64,000 nucleotides of DNA from positions 323,206,001 to 323,270,000 of the forward strand of contig CM126204.1 in assembly GCA_052327205.1 (NCBI GenBank), given 5' to 3'. Shown here piece by piece: positions 2,950-63,360 of the stretch. Every line of letters starts with the position of its first letter. Position 1 is the first letter of the stretch. Below the pieces are notes generated by a model. It did no database searches, was not told the DNA's origin, and saw nothing but the letters and a program-made list of their open reading frames with translations. Source of the DNA: Somniosus microcephalus (Eukaryota). The position numbers and the translations under genes are program-made.

Positions 2950-3969
2950 TTCAGGGCCAGTGTGCTCCTGGACTAGTTTCGATCACCTAGATCAGAGAGG
3001 AGTTCCCCAGATTCCCCCCCCCGCCCCCCCCCCCAAGATTGGCCTGGGGTTTGTATCTGGTTTTTTGTCTCTCAGGAGATCACATGGTTTTGGGTGGGGT
3101 GGAGAGTATATATTGGCCCTGAAATTAGGATCGGGAGCTTGCCGCGCGTGCAAGCCCCCGATGTGCACTCACCCTGCGCGCTGACATCTGAAGCCCAGGC
3201 CTGCTTGCATTTCCTGTCACAGGCCCGGTTCCGATGTCGGCGCGATGTGCTTACCTGATCCAGCGGCGTAGTTAGTGCGATGTGCCGGCTGGGATCAGGT
3301 GAGCACTGTGCAGCCAATCAGGGGAGGGGAAACTCATTCATGAGTTTGAGAGTAAGAACTGTCAAACTCATGAAAAGTATGGGCTGCCAAAACACTACTT
3401 AAACTTTAAATAACATTTTAAAAAACATCCCACTGATTATATTAACTATAAATAAGTTTTAAAAAATGTTTTAAACAATTAATCAATTTTTTGAAAAAAA
3501 TAAATTTTTTAAAAATAGGGTCTAAAACTAAACTTACCTTACTGTAAATTCTTTAAAAATAATAAACCTGTGGAAAAAAAATTCTAAATTGTACTAAAAG
3601 CCCACTTACCTGTAAAACTAAGTACTTACGTCTGGTTTTTCCACACGTAAAAACCGGGGGCCTTTACCCTCGGGCAACTCTGAAAATAAAAAGGAATTTC
3701 ACTGCGCACGCGCTGCCTGTGCAGTCGCACGCGTTCTGCCTCTTAACCCCTTGGGTCAGAGGACAGGAAATGCCGGTTTTCAGCACATGTGCTGTGCATG
3801 CTGAAAACCGGCAATTCCTCCGGTCACACGCGTGAGTACCCCGTCCGTACTCACGCATTGTGACAGGAATTACTGGGCCATTGTGATACACAAGGTATTG
3901 CAATTGTGTGGGACAAGCTCGATGGACCAGAGGGTCTTTACCTGTCCGTCATTGCTCGTACTTTCGTAA
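2950..3969 (+). mobile_element. Retroelement 3'-tail-like fragment (2950-3114 plus 3880-3969) interrupted by a MITE
   Basis: The right part ends GCTCGATGGACCAGAGGGTCTTTACCTGTCCGTCATTG, resembling CR1/SINE tails. The two halves are separated by an ATT-flanked insertion. Confidence 0.4.
3115..3879. mobile_element. Non-autonomous PIF/Harbinger-type element (MITE) with multiple internal hairpins
   Basis: TIRs GGCCCTGAAATT / AATTACTGGGCC, 3-bp TSD ATT (3112-3114, 3880-3882), AT-rich core. Homologous to 61397-62107. Confidence 0.8.
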
Positions 3970-14811: not shown

Positions 14812-16460
14812 GAGGCCCGACCAGTCCCCATCCACCACTACCCTCCTCCGCCTGGCTGAACTTGTTCTCACATTGAACAACTTCTCCTTTAACTCCACTC
14901 ATTTCCTCCAAATCAAAGGTGTTGCCATGGGTACCCGCATGGGTCCTAGCTATGCCTGCCTTTTCGTGGGCTATGTGGAACAATCTTTGTTCTAGTCCTA
15001 CTCGGGTCCCCTCCCTCACCTCTTTTTCCGATACATTGATGACTGTATCGGTGCCGTTTCCTGCTCTCGCCCCGAACTTGACAATTTCATTCACTTTGCC
15101 TCCAATTTCCACCCTTCCCTCACCTTCACATGGTCCATCTCTGACTCTTCCCTTCCCTTCCTCGACTTCTCCGTCTCCATCTCTGGGGATAGGTTATCGA
15201 CCAATATTCACTACAAGCCCAGTGACTCCCACAGCTACCTGGACTACACTTCCTCCCACCCCGCTTCCTGTAAGGACTCTATTCCATTCTCCCAGTTTCT
15301 CCGTCTCCGCCGTATCTGCTCCGACGATGCCACCTTCCACACCAGTGCTTCAGACATGTCTTCCTTTTTCCGCAACCGAGGATTCCCCTCTACCGTGGTT
15401 GACACTGCCCTCGACCGTGTCAGTTCTATCTCCCGCACTTCTGCCCTCACCCCTGCCCCTCCCTCCCGGAACCACGATAGGGTTCCCCTTGTCCTCACCT
15501 TTCACCCCACCAGCCTCCACATTCAACGGATCATCCTCCGGCATTTCCGCTACCTCCAAAGTGACCCCACCACCAAACGTATCTTCCCCTCCCCTCCCCT
15601 TTCAGCATTCCGCAGGGACCGCTCCCTCCGAGACACCCTAGTCCGCTCCTCTATCACCCCAAACAGCCCTTCCCCTTCGCCTGGCACCTTCCCGTGCAAG
15701 CGGAGGAGATGTAACACCTGCCCCTATACCTCCCCCCTTCCCACTGTCCAGGGCCCCAAACACCCCTTCCAGGTGAAACAGCGATTTACTTGTACTTCTC
15801 GCAATCTAGTATACTGTATTCGCTGCTCACGATGCGGTCTCCTCTACATTGGGGAGACCAAACGCAGATTGGGTGACCGCTTTGCGGAACACCTCCGTTC
15901 AGTCCGTAAGGGTGACCCCGAGCTTCCGGTCGCCTGTCATTTTAATTCACCGCTCCATTCCCACTCGGACCTCACCGTCCTTGGCCTCTTGTATTGTTCC
16001 ACGGAAGCTCAACGTAAACTCGAGGAACAGCACCTCATCTTCCGATTAGGCACTCTGCAGCCTTCCGGACTCGAGTTCAACAATTTCAGATCATAAGTTC
16101 GGCCCCTATTTCATTTTTTCTTGTAATTTTTCCACTCCTTTCCCCCCCCCCCCTTTCCTTTTGTTTCTCTCTCACACCTGGCAGCTATCTCTTGCCCTGC
16201 CAGTACACTTTACACCTAATCTCAGCCTATTACCATCTCGTCTAGCTTCTAATCTCTTTTACTTCTTTTGTTTCTTTTATTCTTTTGTCCGATCGCAGCC
16301 CTGCCTTCGATCTAGTTTCTTTTCTTTCCAGTTTTGAAGAAGGGTTCGACCCGAAACGTCAACTCAAATTTCTCTCCACGGATGTTGCCTGACCTGCTGA
16401 GTTTTTCCAGCATTTTCTGTTGTTATTTCGGATTTCCAACATCTGCAGTATTTTGCTATC
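14812..16460 (+). mobile_element. Penelope-like retroelement, 5'-truncated, young
   Basis: A single frame runs to 16096 with one TAG at 14993-14995. RT motifs QIKGVAMGTRMGPSYACLF and FRYIDD; GIY-YIG endonuclease CKRRRCNTC...LVYCIRCSRCGLLYIGETKRRLGDRFAEH; pLTR-type 3' end. Confidence 0.95.
16330..16364 (+). ncRNA. Minimal type I hammerhead ribozyme motif in the Penelope pLTR (C3 position mutated to U)
   Basis: AGTT-TTGAAGA-AGGGT(TCG)ACCC-GAAAC-GTC-AACT: stem I AGTT/AACT, core (C>T)TGANGA, stem II, GAAA, palindromic ACGT in place of stem III, GUC triplet. Confidence 0.75.
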
Positions 16461-19400
16461 GTGTTAGCTGGAGTGTTGAGCTCCAAAATAGCAGCGCTGG
16501 CATCAAATCAGCATTGCACGCTGATTGACGTCATGATCCGCCTGCTCTGCATACTTCAGGCGGACATTCACTGCGCGCGCGCTAATGCACTCACTAATAT
16601 GGCGTCCAGCACGATTTGCCCCATAAGTGTGTGTACGTGCACTGTGGATGCCATTTTGGAGCTCTCAGGGCACTTATAGTGCCCAAAAAATGGGTACTAA
16701 TGATCCGAATTTTGTGCCCCTGGCGTTTAGGATGAGATTTCATGTGGGGTGTGAAAACCATGTTGAATGGTGTCATTGTTTTTTTTTTACTATTTATACC
16801 TATTCTAAGCAGTTAAACAACAGTTTGTAGAAGTTCAGTCAAATGTGTCCATTTGTCACAAGACTGAACTCAGTACAAGTACTCAGTCAGAGAAAGCCAA
16901 ATATGAAAGAAATCTCCACTGGATTAAATTCTTCTTTTCAACAGTCTGGGTCACTCTGTGAAGTTAATCCTGCTTCCATTAATTCTGTTAAATTACCTAA
17001 GTAATGTGTAGTTTTCAAACTTAAAGCCTCACAAACCACAATACCCTTACTGCTGGAGCAGTGAGGGCATTCTTTACTAAAGTTCTGAGCCACTTGTTAC
17101 TCTGCATAACCGTTCGTGCAATTAAAAATAATTCATAGTGCGTGAAGCACTTTGAGGTGTTTTAATATGATACAGCACTACATAAATGCAAGTATTGTGT
17201 AACGTCACTTGGGCTTGTTCTGTGCTTTTCTATATTAACTATTCATTACAAATAATGTACAGACATCTTAATGATGGTTTCTTTATCCTTTATTTTTCCA
17301 GTTATCATTCTTTTGAGTGAAGCTAGGGATAAAGAATAAAGAGCAGGCCAATGCATTTGTATTTTAGCACCCATCCTCAGGTGTAGTTACATACATCTGA
17401 CAAGCAAGCTGGAAGAATTTCCCAGCCTGCAAATTGGGTACAAGTCCAAACTCTGCAGTATTTTTATAACCTCCTAACTTTTAAAACATCAAACTGTGAT
17501 GACAGCAGATGCAGGATACCTTCAGGTCATCCCATTTGACTTAAGCTTAACGGTTTTCACCAACCTCAATCTTACAGTTCACAATGCCCTGTGTAATTCT
17601 CGGTGTTGGTTTCCAGCATCAGTTTTTCAGAATTTCACATAGCACGAGATCTCTTGCTGTTGACCTACTGTTTTGTGAGTGACTGAGATGCCAGGATATG
17701 GCCCAACTTAACACAGGGATTGCAACTGTATCCTTCCACTCTGACCATATTGTCCCTTTTGCAATAACTCCATCTTACTGACAAAAGAAAAATATTAGTG
17801 AAAATTGTGCTCGAAAATATACACCACACATAGAAGAACACAAGATTGGAGAATTTGCCTACATATGTTACCAGGCACACAAGAGTGCTCACTGATAATG
17901 GGATTCTGCTGCAATTCTACTGCCATCCTGCAGTTTTTAATGTGAGCGGTTTGAGGGACCCACAGTGGCACATATGTGCAGTCTGACCCCGTAGTTTCCC
18001 AGGCAACGTGTGGTACAGGGTACAGATGTAATTGGCTCATGACCAGATTGGTCACAGTATCTGACGCAGGAAGACAGCAGCATGGAGTCAGACAGGACTG
18101 CCTGGGTTGACACTGTGTTTGCTATTAAACTTCCCCAAATTATTCAGATTTTTAAAATTTAAAAATACCCTGAGGGGCATTGGAGGTTTGGAATGAGAGG
18201 ACCCGAGATCATGCCCAGTCCCACAGATGTTGCATTTGCACTTTGATGTTGAGATGTGCAGAGTGGAGCCCGACCATTTCTTCACTAGGAAGGAGGGCAG
18301 AGAGACAACCAGAGCAATAATCACCCTGAGCGGCCCCTGTGTTTTGCACAGCAGGTAGTTACAGGGTGGTATCGGCAGAGGCCTGGGAGCAGGATGTCTG
18401 TCTGGCCTCTTGTGCATGGGCCAGTGAGACCTAGAGAGAGGAAATGGGAAAAGCACATTCTTCAACAAAGATAAGGGCAGTGTAATTCCTACATTTTTTT
18501 TTAAAAGAGGAAAGATTAAAACACACACTGCTCTTTTAAATGAACTGGCATGGGGTAAGCGTCCCAAAACTGAGGCTCCAGTTAAGGCTACTTTATTTTT
18601 ATTTCTTTTTTTAAAAAGTGGGAAAAGGATGTGCTGACTTAATTCTCTTCCCCCTGCAGCTACTGGTTAAGGTGAATATGTGAATAGCTAACCCGGCTAG
18701 GCACCTTCATTTTGAGGGTCACTGCTTGGGTAATGGTCTATTAATTTGCTCTATTTTCCCATGTGAGACAAACTCAATTTCTTGGGTGGATTGTGAGCTA
18801 ACTGTTGACACTGTGATTGATTGGTTGAACAGATGTTGCAACCCCACCCCCCCTCTGAAAAAAACACTAACGGGCAGTATTTGCTACATGCTATATGTGC
18901 CTCACACCATGAAAAATGACAGAAATATTGTACAATAAATAGGGTTTACAAACCCAATTTAAAATTATTATGGAAGGCTGTGTTACAGATGGGGTTGCTT
19001 GATACTCATCTCAAATAAAATAGAATTTTCTTATCGCCGTATTATTTTAAGGCATTATCAAGCGCGGTAATGCAGTTATAAATTCAATTTTTGCTGAAAG
19101 ATTCTGTTGTTTGCAGTTGAATGTTGCGTGACAACGTAAACACTGGATGCCTGTCAAAAAATTAATTTCCCAAACTTGGGCCAGAAGGAGAGACCGATCT
19201 GAATTTGTCAAGGGCAATAGATGTCACTGGCTCCAAGTGGTGGATGCTGGTGCAACTGAGAAACTTCTCATTCTTTGTTTCTTCTTGTCATTCTATTACC
19301 CTTTCTAGTTTGCAGAAGTTTGTTTTATATTGTATCGCCTGTTTCTTCTTTTTGTGCCTCCCAAGCCACTTTTCTTGGGAAGAGGGTGATTAGGTAACCT

Positions 19401-23570: not shown

Positions 23571-24228
23571 CTGGCCTCCCATGAGGTCAGAATCATGAAA
23601 CATTACATCAAGGCCTCCACTGAATAGCAGCCAAACCTTCTTCACCCACCACCTCTGCTTCTTCCACACCTGATGAATGTCTCACCCTGTGTTCCCTCCT
23701 GTAAATCGCTGAAACCATCTGACCTATTCACATCTGAGACAGTGCCTGCTTCATATTATGCTGGTGATAGAGTGCAATGCTGAAACACCGCTGCTGGAAT
23801 TCAGGTAGCTCTATAGAAAGAGGAGATGGCATATGATGCTTACATGCACATACTAATGCGTGTTGTGCTGCACAAACCCGACATACTATTTTTTGCAATG
23901 CAGCACAATCCTTCTTTACATCTCCTGAAAATCATACTCAGTGGCACAGTTAAAGAAGATGTATAAAAATAATTTTAAATTTGCCTTTTCGGTGCATCTT
24001 CTGCTATACTGCCTGCCTGCCCAGTTATCTGTCAAAATTGCAATCGGGATCCTATGTACGTCATAGGACCGCGATTTTCATATTAAAAGGACCTACAGGA
24101 GGGAGCACAGGGTGAGACATTCATCACAGGTGTGGAAGAAGCAGAGGTGGTGGGTGCAGAAGGTTTGGCTGCTATTCAGTGAAGGCCTCGATGTAATGTT
24201 TCATGATTCTGACCTGATGGGAGGCCAG
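23571..24228. repeat. Local inverted repeat: 23571-23703 vs 24094-24228
   Basis: ~134-bp arms, reverse-complementary with few mismatches and one 2-bp indel, and a 390-bp spacer. Confidence 0.9.
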
Positions 24229-31990: not shown

Positions 31991-33915
31991 TCATACCAAC
32001 CGTTTAAGGTGCGTCACCTCAACGTGAACTCTGATGTTTTAATTTGCGTTTATATAAATATAAAATAGTTGTTTAACAAAAAAAATGTTTTTGCCCAAGC
32101 AGAAAACACAATGCTCATTGTCCTTGTCTCTAACTGAAAGATTCATGCTGTTAATTTTTTCTCAGCATATTAATGCAAAAAGCCTTCAAGCTTTAGCAGC
32201 ATTCAGCAACAATAGGGTTAAGCAGAAAATAACATATACAGTTTCAATGGTGGGTCAATACTGAGTCTTCCTGACTTGAACAAAGGTTTCATCACGATTT
32301 AATTTTTTTCGCACTTTGTCTGTGTGTGTCTCTCTCACTCTGCCTTTCCCCCGCACTCAATGTCCTGTTAACTGAAGTTTTTCAGCTAAAACTAAAATGT
32401 AAAAAAAAAAGAAATGTATCCCAGTATAAATCTGTCATCGATCAGGGCAGTGACAGATGGCTTGCTGGATTGTGTTTCATTATAAAACATTGCAGGAGTC
32501 ACTCAGATTCATACTGACACGCATGCTGAAAAATTCTGAAAAAATTGGCAGCCAACCTGTTAGGGAGGAGACCAGATTAGAAATTAGAGCAGAACATGCA
32601 CAGTTGTTTAATGCTTGAATAAATGTCATTCATAATCAACTATTTGTACATAATGGGATTAAATTCTTATCTTTAGCACATCATTTCTTTTCTTTTCTAC
32701 CAGTCTACCTGGTGATTCTGATTTTACATGTTGGCGTGGTATTATCCATGCTTCGGTATAACATTGGCTATTGTACATTTATTTAGTTAGTTAGTGACAC
32801 CATTTCTAAAACATTTATATTTTCATTTTAGATAGTTTGTTCTAGTACCAGGATTTAGCTAGATTGTTTCCTCAAGAGTGACATAGCACTTCTCTCTTCA
32901 TCTGGATGAAATTGTCCTCTGTGATTGAGCACTGGGCTACAGGAGGACATTGAGACGGAAGGAGCAACTGGTTTTAGCTGAGCACTCAGGCCAATCCAAG
33001 CAGTCAGTGCGAGTTGGGGCTGGGGGAATGACAAGTATAACAGTATTGTGGCCAGATCACCCTCCCATCCCAATATAAGCCGAATTACAATGAATGAGTG
33101 GTGCCTTCATGTTCCTGCACCAAGGCTGCTGTGATGTTGCTAGTTTTCCCTCGTAAAAGTGAAGTTTGGCCAAAGGAGGGGATTAATGATTACCCCCAAC
33201 ATTTGTAACTCCCTCCCGGATCTTTACTGTATGCCTTCTTCCACTGCAATACCGCATATATGACTAGTTTTCCTGAGTGCAGTAGGAGTGGGCACGGAGT
33301 GTCTCAGGACAAACCAATCTTGCAGTGGGGGCTTTAGAAAAAGGCTTTAGGCCCCTCATTTGCATATGCAAAGGGTCTGATGCCTGTTTCAGGCGTGGGC
33401 ACTGCACGCTATCTTTTTGGTCTTTACCAATATGGCCGGTGGCACGCTTCCTGCCCGCCATATTAGAGGCTTAGGAGATGGCTCAGTGCCCAAAAAATGG
33501 GCGCTGCACAGCCGAATTTGTAGGTCAGAGAGTTTTGGCATGCTACTTAACCAAGAGGGAAACATCACAATCTCGCCCCACATTTTGCAGCAGGGATTGC
33601 TATTTTTTTAAAAATTCCCCCGCCCTTACCACAGGAGCACTGACACCAATTGTAGTTCACCTAACGCTTCCAAGATCAGATCAACTTTGATCCCACATTT
33701 GAAGGAGAAAGCATTCTGAGTTCCCCAACACTGGCAGTAAGACAATTCTAAAGTTTTTGGTGTAGCCGCAAGCTGACTGTTTTAAAGCCGTTACAACCAT
33801 TGCAGAAAAAAGACAAAGTAAGGATCAATGTCATGGAGAAACACAATAGGACAAGACTCCTGTAATGCCTTACATTATCTCATGGACCTGTTTATTTAGT
33901 GTCATCAACATTGTG

Positions 33916-34912
33916 GCCTGGAGTTTCCGCTTGGTTGCGCTGTTTTTTTCTCCGCGCAATTCGCCCAAAATCGGCCAAACCAGCGCAAAAGATTCACAGA
34001 AACCCCACAGTGCAGATAGAGGCCATTTCGGCCCACGGAGCCTGCACCGACACATATCCCACCCGATCCCTGTAACCCCTACACCAACACATATCCCACC
34101 CTATCCCCACGTATTTAATCCCCCTAACACTAAGGGTCAATTTATCATAGCCAATCAACCTAACCCGCACATCTTTGGACCGTGGGAGGAAACCGGAGCA
34201 CCCGGAGGAAACCCACAGCAAACACGGGGAGAATGTGCAAACTCCACACAGACAGTCGCCCGAGGGTGGATTCGAACCCGGGTCCCTGGCGCTGTGAGGC
34301 AACAGTGCTAACCACTGTGCCACCGTGCTGAGATCTGAGTTTCAAGCGCAAATGATGTCCAATGCAAATCAAGCTTCTGCGCTCTTTCCCACTAGTTTAA
34401 AAAATATTGTGCTAGAGCTGGCCCTGCCCCCAAAATTGGCCACACCCCTAGATAGAATGAATCACCATTGCAAGTGCCCGCTATCTGCAACTGTTTGCGG
34501 GCCTTTGAGGCGGTTCTTAAAATTAAGCTGGTTCTTTTGGACGCAAGGACCCTAATAGGCATGTTTTCAACATTTTTGAATATATATTTTTTTAATTTAC
34601 TAAGGAACTGACTACTGTACACCAATATAACCAGCCAGTGGTTCTGTATAGTTTATTAAAGCTATTTTTAGTTATTTAAAATTGGGTTACTAGACACTGA
34701 TTAAAAATGCTTATTTTTTGTGATAAACCCATTTTCAGCTGTATTAATCAAACGGCTTCAAGTTACCACTCTTAAATATATCAAGGAATACTTTTTAAGG
34801 CAAACATTTAATTTTTTTAAAAACAACGTTCTAAAGCACTGCTCGATTGCACTGCTTTATGGCAGGTTTTACGTTCAGTGATATGCAAATGAGTTTGAGC
34901 GGAAACTTGCGG
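33916..34912. mobile_element. MITE-like element hosting a V-SINE
   Basis: Inverted ends AGTTTCCGCT / AGCGGAAACT, AT-rich core. The boundaries are approximate. Confidence 0.5.
33991..34327 (-). mobile_element. V-SINE (HE1-like), near full length
   Basis: tRNA head with A box TGGCACAGTGG and B box GGTTCGAATCC, V domain, and tail GGGCCGAAATGGCCTCTATCTGCACTGTGGGGTTTCTGTGAATC. Confidence 0.9.
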
Positions 34913-35249
34913 GGAAAAAAACACATCTCAAAATTAGCGTAGTTTTGAGCACAGTTCGCACCCGGATTGCCATTTGCGCCCAAAGCGGATACTCTACCCC
35001 TTTATATTGTCTACTAGCTGGAGTGCCCGGCGGTGCCGAGGGTTTTTTGAGGGCATGTTGTTGTTGGAAGATAGAGAGAGAGACTGGGGGGAGGAGAGAC
35101 TGGGGGGAGAACAGAGAGATGGGGGGGGGGGGAGAGAGAGAGAGACTGCTGGATTTAGTTTGGGATTAGCCTGGAGAGAGAGGGGGGGAAGGAGTGCCTC
35201 AGGCCTGGCCTGATTGACCCCTGCGAAGGAAGGAAGGAAGGAAGAAGGC

Positions 35250-51352: not shown

Positions 51353-51549
51353 AAATAACAACAGAAAATGCTGGAAACACTCAGCAGGCCAGGCAGCAGC
51401 CATGCAGTGAGAAACAGAGTTAACGTTTCAGGTCTGAGACCCTTCACGTTAACTCTGTTTCTCTCTCCACGGATACTGCCTGGCCTGCTGAGTGTTTCCA
51501 GCATTTTCTATTGTTATTTCAGTTTTCCAGCATCCGCAGTATTTTGCTA
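51353..51549. mobile_element. Fold-back element made of inverted Penelope pLTR sequence, with 14-bp direct repeats
   Basis: Arms ~51353-51427 and ~51446-51519 are reverse-complementary. TTGTTCTGAATATA occurs at both 51339-51352 and 51550-51563. Confidence 0.85.
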
Positions 51550-51629
51550 TTGTTCTGAATATATTTTGAATTATTTTTAAGATATTTGATTTTCCCCTCT
51601 CTTTAGCTACGCAACCCCGACCCCCGCTC

Positions 51630-59930: not shown

Positions 59931-61396
59931 GATCTCTTAGATATAAAAAAGTGAGACAGCAAACTGTATAAAATCAGAATCCTCTCTGAGTAGAGAGGAT
60001 GATGAGAAGAAGGCCTCCTTTTTCACACTCCTTTTATGCTACCAGATTTCCTCCAACAGCAGAAGTGTTATTGAAAGTAACCCTATAGTATTATAACCTG
60101 ACACGCATGCTGTTGGAGGCAGTGAATGAGGGTTTCACTCACTGTCTCTGATGGAAAGTGCAGGTGGTGGCAAGTATAAACAGCTCATACTAGCGGCAGT
60201 TGCCATCGGGTCACTATTTTAGGTCTGGCCTTGGGCAGGGTGATCTCTCCGGCAATCCCATTCAGGCCTGTATAGACCTTCCTCAGCATTAAGGAAGATC
60301 TGCAGCTAGACTGGCAAAGTGTCAAATCTGATTTTGCACTCATTGCTGGAAAATCAGTTGAAGCAAGTTGGCAAAATGTATTTATCATGGTGATATCAGC
60401 AACGGAAATATGGTTTTGAATTGTACAAATATGAGTAATCTAAATGATTTTCTGTACAAAAAAACACATGTTTTACCGTGCTTGCAGGCATACAGATATA
60501 CTGTCACAATACAGGGCCTGGCCTGCACTTGGATCACTTTGGCATGTGTACAACCGGTTCTGTAATCCTGAGCAATATAACTGGGTACAAATGCACATGT
60601 GATTGTTTCTTCATTATTACCATCTCTGTGTGTGATACTCTGAGTAAATGAAAGAGAAAAACTCTTTATTCTGAACAACAAATTCAAGTGATAATTACAT
60701 GTATAGTCAATATTTGCTATATCCAATATCATAATTATGATCAACTAAAGAGCTTTCCCATTTTCTGATAATGTCTTCAGTGATGCTGCTTCTATAACAT
60801 GCTAGTGAAAATGAGGCACATTGAACATCACAGCCTCATTCACTCCAACAGGCTATACCCACCGCTCACCGCACACATTTTGCTTTGTTTTGAACTTCAG
60901 ATTGCTAATGAGTAGGTGAAGTGGAAACCAGATCACTCAGTAACTCATATAACCTATTCCTACACTATGTTCCGTGCCCCCATTGACCCTGTCAACCTGC
61001 TTTGCTTCTCTGTCCCTAATTCACCTACAAATTCCTCCAGGGGCCGTGCCCTATCTTATCTCTGTAGCCTCCTCCGGCCCTACATGCCAACACGTACCCT
61101 CTGCTCTTCTGACTTACGCCTCCTTCACAACCTCCTTCCTCTTTTAAATTAGCCAAGGGATTGGGTTTGTACCAGCACCTAGTAGTGGGTAGTTTCCATG
61201 AGTGAAGGCCCTCATTTCCTCTCTCATTTCCATAGCTGCCCCTTGCTTGTGCCTACAGTCTCTCAGACGATCCCCAGGAAATACCTGGGCAGCATAAAAA
61301 GGCGTAATCCCAACAACATAGGTCTGAGCATTACCCAGAGGCAGAGAAAAGAAAAATCTGAGCTAACGATGTTTAAAGTTAAAGGGATAAAATAAT

Positions 61397-62107
61397 GGCC
61401 CGTAATTTCCGATAAGAGGCTTCCTGCGTGCAGATGCCTCCTATCGGAAAAAAATCTACAAACTTACCTGAGGGCTCCCAAGGTCCGGACACTTCCGCTC
61501 CTGGACCTCTCCAAAGTCGAAATGCGCAGGGCCCACGTATCCCAGGGGCACATGCAGTTAGCAAGCATCCCTGGGATCATGTGGGCCAGGCGCGCCAATG
61601 GGAGAAGGGAATCTCCCATCATACTTTTGACAGATAGACCTTGTCAAATATATGAATGGAGATCACCCCATAAAGACATTAAAACATTAAATACATTTTT
61701 AAAAAACCATCACGTTTTTAAAATGAGTTAAAATGACATTAAATTAAATATTTTAAACAAAAATTTAATTTTTTGAAAAAAGAATTAAAGTTTTTTACAG
61801 GGCTAAAATAAACACCTTTTTTTAAAAGTATTTTAAAATTATAAATGAGTGAAAAAAAAATATTTTTAAACTTTTTTTCAACTCTTATGCTGGTAAAAAC
61901 AGGCCTTACGCCTGCTTTTACCAGGCATAAGATTTCTAAGGGTTTTCTGTGGGCGGAGGTTCTGCAGAAAGCAGAGAGCATTCTTGACAGATTGGAAATG
62001 CTGGTTTTCAGCACATGCGCTTCGCATGCCTGAAACCGGCATTTCCGATGTCCCTACGGGTGGGTACACAACTCGTACACACCCATAGGCATCGGAAAAT
62101 ATGGGCC
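61397..62107. mobile_element. Harbinger-type MITE with multiple hairpins, relative of 3115-3879
   Basis: TIRs GGCCCGTAATTTCCGAT / ATCGGAAAATATGGGCC, TSD AAT (61394-61396, 62108-62110). Confidence 0.9.
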
Positions 62108-63360
62108 AATAAATACGATGGCAGCTATGGACTTAAGGTTACAGATATAAAGATAGATTCATCAATCCTATGCTTTTACGGTGTGGGGTTGCACTTGAAG
62201 GGAGCATGGCATTACAGTGTTGTAACCCTATTTCTGGCCCAGTGCTCCTTTAATCTACTAAACCATTTATACCATTTAAACTGTAGATATTCTTTTGAAA
62301 AGTTTGGAAAAATCAGTTCGAGTAGAAAAGTGTACATTAAAAAAAAATCAATTGGCATTATTTTAATCAATATAGTATGGATTCAAAATAACAAGAACCA
62401 AGAAGGGTTAAAGAGGGTAGGGAGCAGGGATCGTGTTCAGGGAGCCATTGTGCTAAAGATTAGCCAGTATTGCCTGAATAACTGAATGGATTGAATGTTA
62501 TCTATCATGGCACAAAGAGAGCCATTATTTAATAATTAATACTGAGGCCTTATTCTTCTGCTACTTGTGTAAGGATGAGTGTATCAGGAGACGAGACTTG
62601 TCTTTTATTCGATAGCAACTATTATTTAGGCAAAGGCATCATTCCTTTTCATTTGTCACAAGTAGACAACAGTGTCAGCAGAGTTTATGATTTAGCTTTT
62701 TTCACCAGATGATCAGCTGTAGCTTTAACTCCTTGCAGTCCGTGGCTATACATGTGATCTGAATGAAGTAAAGGTAAGAGAGGAATATTAGTGCTTCCCC
62801 ACAGGGAAGGAGGCAGATTTGCAACCAACAGTTGCAAATGATGTGTCCAGCGGTTTTACTCCCACAAACCCACACCTCCCCCCCCATCTATGGGGACATG
62901 CCTGGCCTCCATTTGTTTCCTTGATGGCTTGACTGAGATTGGAAAAGGCACAGTGTAGAGAAAAGCACACAAAATAGGAGAGAAACAACAAATGAAAAAT
63001 GTAAAAATGTCATTGGCTGTGTTTTTTCCCCATACATTGCATGTTACATAGTATAATGGTCCTGTCCTTATAAAGCAGCGTATCCTCCAATCCACCATCT
63101 CAAGGGAGATGCACTAGTGTCACAAAAAAGCACTGAATGATTTGGACCCTTATGGCTACAGATGTAATAAAACCTGAGGTCGTGTGCTGACCTGAGCTGT
63201 GTACATTGTGCTACGCTAGATGCATGGCTGAGAAGTTTATTTCTGTGCACAATGAAATAGGCTCTGTTGTTTTACCATATTTTCATTCTATACTGCAGTA
63301 TCATATGGTCAGCTGTCAGCAAAAAAGGTTTAACTGAGAAATTATACATTGTTTTACTAT

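Follow-up and report, generated by a model that had tools for sequence, protein, structure and literature searches.

Covarying hairpins and unlike target junctions in a Harbinger-type MITE family of Somniosus microcephalus

Two elements and their autonomous relatives

The window (the whole 64,000-nt stretch of Somniosus microcephalus DNA analysed here) holds two related elements, A and B, whose outlines are as follows.

3112..3114, + strand: ATT, the trinucleotide left of A, repeated at 3880-3882
3115..3879, + strand: element A, subfamily A1, a 765-nt non-autonomous PHIS/Harbinger element
3390..3595, + strand: AT-rich core of A, which appears to resemble the AT-rich predicted first introns of both autonomous-element genes
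61394..61396, + strand: AAT, the trinucleotide left of B, repeated at 62108-62110
61397..62107, + strand: element B, a 711-nt copy of subfamily B, whose consensus is 761 nt long

Both elements start with GGCCC and end with GGGCC, and they align in collinear order with 415 of 789 columns identical; with the matching flanks (ATT/ATT and AAT/AAT), these data bear out the coordinates, ends and collinearity given in the initial annotation of the window. Element B has a 50-nt deletion relative to its subfamily consensus, with parts of hairpins H5 and H6 gone, and A1 copies diverge from their consensus by ~2.4%. Folding, when compared with dinucleotide shuffles, gives z-scores of -12.8 for A and -20.8 for B, with 0/20 shuffles as good in each case. 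The elements are short, non-coding, high in copy number and uniform in length and have terminal inverted repeats (short and imperfect in the A subfamilies), and are MITEs in this sense.

MITE copies number tens of thousands in this genome. A first look at the 6.45 Gb gave 3518 candidates with the A query and 10,989 with the B query (40 candidates each were scored), an 18-nt motif from stem 4 has 8089 exact matches (control 0), and a terminal-stem motif occurs at 35,091 places (control 11). Nine consensuses were derived, from A1 (33 copies), A2a (11), A2b (10), A3 (3), C (19), E (20), D (20), B (27) and F (24). Their length is 756-771 nt, and the divergence between them, F set aside, is 5-41%. 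Several copies are mosaic between subfamilies, and related sequence is present in sequencing runs of three organisms. The consensuses have a CpG observed/expected ratio of 0.93-1.23, and their CpG sites mutate only ~2 times faster than others, which is low for methylated vertebrate DNA. Two copies (L223, L224) represent a 990-nt hybrid non-autonomous type in which ~330 nt of an autonomous left end is joined to a MITE from H2 onward, and one C-type MITE (L145:1477-2310; contig C1, ~2298780-2299610) repeats a 63-64-nt terminal hairpin unit ~13 times head to tail before its true end.

The MITE profile, applied to 20 transposase loci, recognised 17 left ends and 19 right ends, and the 16 loci with both ends span 3.5-5.7 kb, with the same termini as the MITEs and with AWT-type flanks. 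One autonomous copy (L136) carries DDE_Tnp_4 on its minus strand (PF13359, E 6e-42) and a Myb_DNA-bind_5 exon on its plus strand (L136:2257-2508; PF13873, E 5e-12, above the cut-off); longer fragments from other autonomous copies gave no match to a Myb/SANT domain. The nearest proteins to the transposase are shark sequences labelled 'putative nuclease HARBI1' (59-67% identical). The Harbinger transposase expansion in this genome is very large and fairly recent: a PF13359 profile search returned 96,622 first-look candidates, and many of the 150 that were scored have 386-aa open frames. Three autonomous copies (L131, L136, L140) have the same flanks at different contigs or places and are thus carried by a larger duplicated segment.

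The MITEs match the autonomous elements over their first 70-105 nt and last 190-260 nt (D consensus 511-756 and the right end of L132 are 95% identical, and A1 consensus 581-766 shares 88% identity with L136). BLAST found no match for the MITE middle (~105-510) in six autonomous loci; in some autonomous loci the MITE profile extends further into the AT-rich part. Judging from the gene layout, the element ends would be two promoters, the AT-rich core would derive from first introns, and the repeated ACTTACC words may be splice donors; no splice joints at these words were seen in two RNA runs (low depth, 85% likeness).

We conclude that A and B, which are non-autonomous and carry no genes, derive from a cut-and-paste transposon of the PHIS/Harbinger type with two genes (DDE_Tnp_4 and Myb/SANT), GG..CC ends and an AWT target. 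The Harbinger Myb-like protein binds palindromic subterminal sites, and the link of A and B to a Harbinger system with a Myb-type gene is now established through ends shared with elements that encode both a DDE transposase and a Myb/SANT domain. These shared ends, the Myb/SANT second ORF and the 3-bp target duplication place the elements in PHIS/Harbinger. The target is not the strict TWA of PIF/Harbinger (position 1 is A in 121/134 and position 3 is T in 113/134 cases, on each side) and agrees with the ANT/AWT target duplication of the Pangu type; ISL2EU elements have a 2-bp AT duplication in A|AT|T and a YqaJ second ORF, whereas the second ORF here is Myb. A 2-bp duplication behind AAT|ATT flanks was rejected for one copy (L014), for which 17 of 20 paralogues have a 3-base AAT empty site.

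Pangu_CGig (Harbinger-3_CGi), as presented in excerpts of PMC4482050, is similar in its 3-bp AWT target, GG termini, DDE_Tnp_4 and Myb-type ORFs and length of ~4-5 kb, a likeness that lies in target, termini and ORF content. Pangu terminal inverted repeats are given there as 11-40 bp, whereas the ends of A match over ~12 bp with mismatches, and the same excerpts show no vertebrate among the Pangu entries, no hairpin array and no junction heterology. The mPing/Ping/Pong and Harbinger3_DR systems (excerpts of PMC2836001, PMC4561436) also share with the present elements two proteins, non-autonomous derivatives, a 3-bp duplication and an extended palindromic target preference, but their target is TWA rather than AWT and the excerpts describe no covarying internal hairpins. 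According to the excerpted surveys, PHIS is absent from sharks (PMC4482050) and no Harbinger was found in elephant shark (PMC9179366); the large expansion reported here falls outside the samples described in both.

The window contains further repeats. A third GG..CC element (~33915-35000) belongs to a separate, older MITE family with its own hairpins (5634 candidates, 75-80% identity) and is split by a short interspersed repeat, another copy of which lies at 1153-1337. An element at 23571-24228 has 135-bp inverted arms (23571-23703/24094-24228) that are 95% alike, and a palindromic repeat near 16339-16462 has a copy near 51353-51553.

Hairpin order and covariation between subfamilies

The hairpins of A and B are listed below (without strand), with the stem numbers of the initial annotation where these apply.

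3130..3162: A hairpin H1 (stem 1), in autonomous left ends too
3177..3244: A hairpin H1b, strong in the A subfamilies, partial in C and E, absent in B, D and F
3247..3306: A hairpin H2, common to all nine subfamilies
3337..3374: A hairpin H3 (stem 2), its inner arms wholly replaced in subfamily F
3610..3644: place of H4 in A (stem 3), decayed
3765..3819: A hairpin H7 (stem 4), in autonomous right ends too
3813..3872: A terminal hairpin H8, whose inner 10 bp (3830-3839/3847-3856) are stem 5
61406..61450: B hairpin H1, its outer arm overlapping the terminal inverted repeat
61530..61587: B hairpin H2
61611..61663: B hairpin H3, arms 61611-61632/61642-61663
61880..61935: B hairpin H4 with CTTAC loop, arms 61890-61904/61910-61924, 93%
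61991..62049: B hairpin H7
62042..62098: B terminal hairpin H8

Of the five stems first described, four are present in both elements. Stem 1 is real in both (12/13 pairs in A, 16/19 in B), as is stem 2 (16/17 pairs in A, with the B arms now located at H3), and stem 5 has 10/10 pairs in A and 9/10 in B, the subfamily B consensus being fully paired there. Stem 4 is real as well (20/21 pairs in A) but is kept mainly by sequence, A and B being 85% identical in this part, and stem 3, with its CTTAC loop, is strong in B but is not restored in A, where the equivalent register has 8/15 Watson-Crick pairs. Two further stems of A, H1b and H2, had gone without mention; the second is shared with B. A blind inverted-repeat search of A1, B and F found 10-11 hairpins covering 360-516 nt, compared with 2-6 hairpins and 96-270 nt in eight local shuffles each. 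Across subfamilies H1, H2, H3, H7 and H8 are fixed in place and H1b, H4, H5 and H6 are variable; subfamily F has its hairpins in the same order, though the arms of H3 and H8 differ in sequence. RNAalifold recovered H1, H2, H7 and H8 but not H3 and H4. The autonomous end consensuses contain H1, H7 and H8 but not H1b, for which the left ends offer 2-5 of 16 pairs.

When stems defined in one subfamily were read in another and compared with a permutation, covariation across the consensuses was significant in 15 of 18 comparisons (the exceptions are the three closest), which upholds the proposal that pairing is restored with different bases; with their common history the 18 comparisons are not independent, and the mosaic make-up of the family stands in the way of a clean event count on a tree. 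From A1 to B, 113 pairs divide into 61 unchanged, 18 compensated (5.1 expected), 28 single and 6 other changes, and CpG decay is not the source of the compensated pairs, because 11 of the 18 are not transition pairs. From B to F, 15/157 pairs are compensated where 3.0 are expected. In 21 real copies 87% of cells pair and 35/96 pairs change on both sides, as against 10-16 with slid partners and 27.2 in shuffles, 1/500 of which reached 35; the count of further pair types in these copies showed no excess over shuffles. The statement that the array is conserved 'rather than through sequence' was too strong, given that stems diverge less than other GC-rich positions (0.34 vs 0.49, A1 to B).

A recurring motif of 7-8 nt occupies five to seven homologous positions, its orientation alternating from one to the next, and is altered across whole subfamilies (TTCCT in A, TTCCG in B and D, TTGCG in F); it accounts for the outer base of H1, H7 and H8, the hairpins of stems 1, 4 and 5. 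With this motif and the palindromic words in the element ends, which we take to be NRF1-, ETS-, E-box- and CRE-like, one might argue that the stems are by-products of inverted short sites for proteins (Myb-like or host promoter factors) whose specificity drifts by subfamily. We consider this improbable, since most compensated pairs lie outside the motif (H1 8/9, H2 4/4, H3 4/4, H8 5/5, H7 3/6), no sequence is common to the arms of different hairpins and the H3 arms of F have been replaced outright. The suggestion that the covariation goes beyond what short binding sites need is thereby supported.

Maintenance of pairing

A repeat may covary significantly without being an RNA. Selection on RNA folds in host or element transcripts would agree with the presence of element RNA in two runs of a related organism (raw runs, chosen by species label) and with the strong folding of both strands, yet we regard it as very unlikely. 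The RNA reads fall on both strands of the MITE and have heterogeneous flanks, their A>G differences do not exceed in frequency those of two contig runs, and an Rfam scan of the window gave 0 matches; the two ORFs have few reads, most of which fit sense transcription if the libraries are stranded as usual. The distinct mismatches in consensus stems (12 G-T, 18 A-C, 28 other) give the + strand no surplus of wobble pairs and the - strand a slight surplus (18 vs 12). Moreover, inserted stems decay neutrally, and H1, H7 and H8 of the autonomous elements would lie outside the predicted transcription starts.

Resident copies decay neutrally, without detectable repair. Private substitution rates in stems and linkers are 0.020 and 0.021 (AT), 0.024 and 0.024 (GC) and 0.041 and 0.043 (CpG), respectively. 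The 165 copies left after identity thresholds contain 558 single stem breaks as against seven doubles, all of them Watson-Crick (0 non-pairing) and confined to the older sets C, B and F, with none in the 109 youngest copies; at 2002 mismatch cells there were 10 pairing-restoring changes where 9.3 were expected, and thus no excess. An apparent excess of private doubles (20 non-CpG vs 7.9) was set aside, as 15 came from F, 10 of these in the badly left-aligned copies L290, L296 and L297; outside F there were 5 (3.6 expected).

Variants that have transposed, defined as non-CpG variants shared by at least three copies (10 of the 24 F copies and the 3-copy A3 being left out), are depleted in stems, with a ratio of 92:579 for arms and of 128:481 for loops and linkers (odds ratio 0.60, p 6e-4). 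The depletion is less marked at family-variable columns, where the odds ratio is 0.76 (p 0.09) relative to loops and linkers and 0.65 (p 0.01) relative to the core, and part of the signal is therefore plain sequence constraint. The constraint on stems is mild, because 71/74 shared stem variants break a pair and 3/74 are compensated; one stem-breaking variant is present in 20/45 A1 copies. Mismatched intermediates are found, as at A1 711/750, where T-A is accompanied by G.A in 10/45 copies and G-C in 13/45, and also at H1 16/48, at H1 20/44 (in the single copies L072 and L200) and in an H7 pair of a six-copy autonomous cluster. Deletions of at least 5 nt touch hairpins in 39/63 cases (a count with no null comparison), and several are recurrent.

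Among the mechanisms offered in the initial annotation, symmetry of the DNA itself fits these data best; RNA structure is disfavoured by the missing G-T excess and the both-strand reads, and conversion was undetected in resident copies (10 vs 9.3). We suggest that selection on the inverted symmetry of the DNA in transposing lineages keeps the hairpins, an account that we hold equally likely to prove right or wrong. The 7-8 nt motif would be a putative site of the Myb protein, and the longer arms beside the motif sites may fold transiently, as a cruciform or by fold-back on either single strand, which would favour end recognition, excision or copying; pairs would change one step at a time by way of tolerated mismatches, and an occasional template switch may supply some of the repairs. 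Against such selection it can be said that single stem breaks do transpose, that the depletion is in part sequence constraint and that seven of seven pairing doubles are expected from copying too. Further, most internal hairpins are dispensable, because H1b, H4 and H5 come and go between subfamilies and the two 990-nt variants lack one H2 arm.

The hairpins may instead confer no benefit, arm-to-arm copying (template switching or hairpin mismatch repair) re-perfecting the stems while the DNA is single-stranded, in gap repair or in replication that raises copy number, with motif constraint explaining the depletion. We find this rather unlikely, though it is the main rival. According to an excerpt of PMC8794818, stems can arise and be fixed in a single step in this way, and stem changes are then compensatory without point-by-point selection, as they would be here; template exchange is common in this mosaic family, H1b is fully paired in the A MITEs and absent from autonomous ends with similar left arms, and the pairing of all seven private doubles and the deletions that touch hairpins also agree with it. 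In that excerpt, however, template-switch maintenance is known for RNA genes, whereas here it was undetected in resident copies, which have no excess repair; few shared stem variants are compensated, and mismatched intermediates are seen. We place selection before copying because copying by itself is not expected to lower how many sites vary, whereas stems here show less divergence and a deficit of shared variants. Selection on symmetry and copying coupled to amplification can act together. The success of some MITEs in amplifying has long been a puzzle, and an architecture that is flexible in sequence and constrained in symmetry bears on it.

Target junctions

The target consensus is ANAY-AWT-RTNT. 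The junction sample comprised 201 full-length matches, 178 of them with GG..CC ends and 121 of at least 95% identity to consensus; 58 of these 121 young copies have unlike flanks, which differ at the middle base in 47, the first in 14 and the third in 12, where decay predicts ~6 per position. The A1 query included the ATT flanks; the E query did not, and E copies found with it have unlike flanks in 19/41. Paralogous empty sites were recovered for 42 insertions, and each holds one trinucleotide. Among 28 well-supported empty sites, 11 agree with both junctions, 10 with one and 7 with none; where one junction agrees, the other reads AAT or ATT in 6 cases, ATA or ACT in 2 and GAG or CAT in 2. One copy (L064) has AAC at the empty site and ATT as its left flank. 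For the 10 insertions with one matching junction, hybrids of two different insertions were rejected as an explanation of the unlike flanks, since both flanks are contiguous in the empty site. Conversion by another copy, reaching just past the element end, is a possible cause.

The empty sites appear to point to carry-over of bases from the donor site. With the donor base taken at each junction in half of the cases, the expected middle-base mismatch is 37.5%, and 39% was observed. The excised element would carry 3-nt overhangs from the donor duplication, and their ligation into a new AWT site would often leave one junction with donor rather than target bases. The piggyBac transposon integrates without DNA synthesis by ligating donor overhangs and can alter bases at imperfect targets; it belongs to another superfamily, has a 4-bp TTAA target and forms a hairpin intermediate, and the likeness lies in the donor target-site overhangs that are carried along. 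Donor bases left on the element would also follow from staggered cleavage of the mPing type, for which an excerpt of PMC4561436 gives a model of cleavage within the duplication with 5' overhangs. As excerpted, the mPing and Harbinger3_DR accounts treat how the excision site is repaired rather than donor bases at new insertions (PMC2836001, PMC4561436), and a search of titles and the first lines of abstracts found no description of covarying hairpins or of donor carry-over in Harbinger MITEs, which is not proof of absence. The junction result bears on how PHIS transposases integrate and, if the carry-over is true, annotation based on target-site duplications misses or misclassifies close to half of these insertions.

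Taken together, we tentatively put forward, as a doubtful but possible reading, that this is a family of eukaryotic DDE transposons in which the cis requirement is partly a DNA fold, with compensatory evolution like that of RNA genes, and in which 3-nt overhangs brought from the donor are ligated into AWT sites on integration, making the target duplications heteroduplex junctions. The ideas on fold and overhang can be tested, because this genome itself has many copies whose transposase frame is open. Members of the family are also found nested in each other or in autonomous copies (L043, L077, L090, L128, L137), the AT-rich core providing a preferred target.
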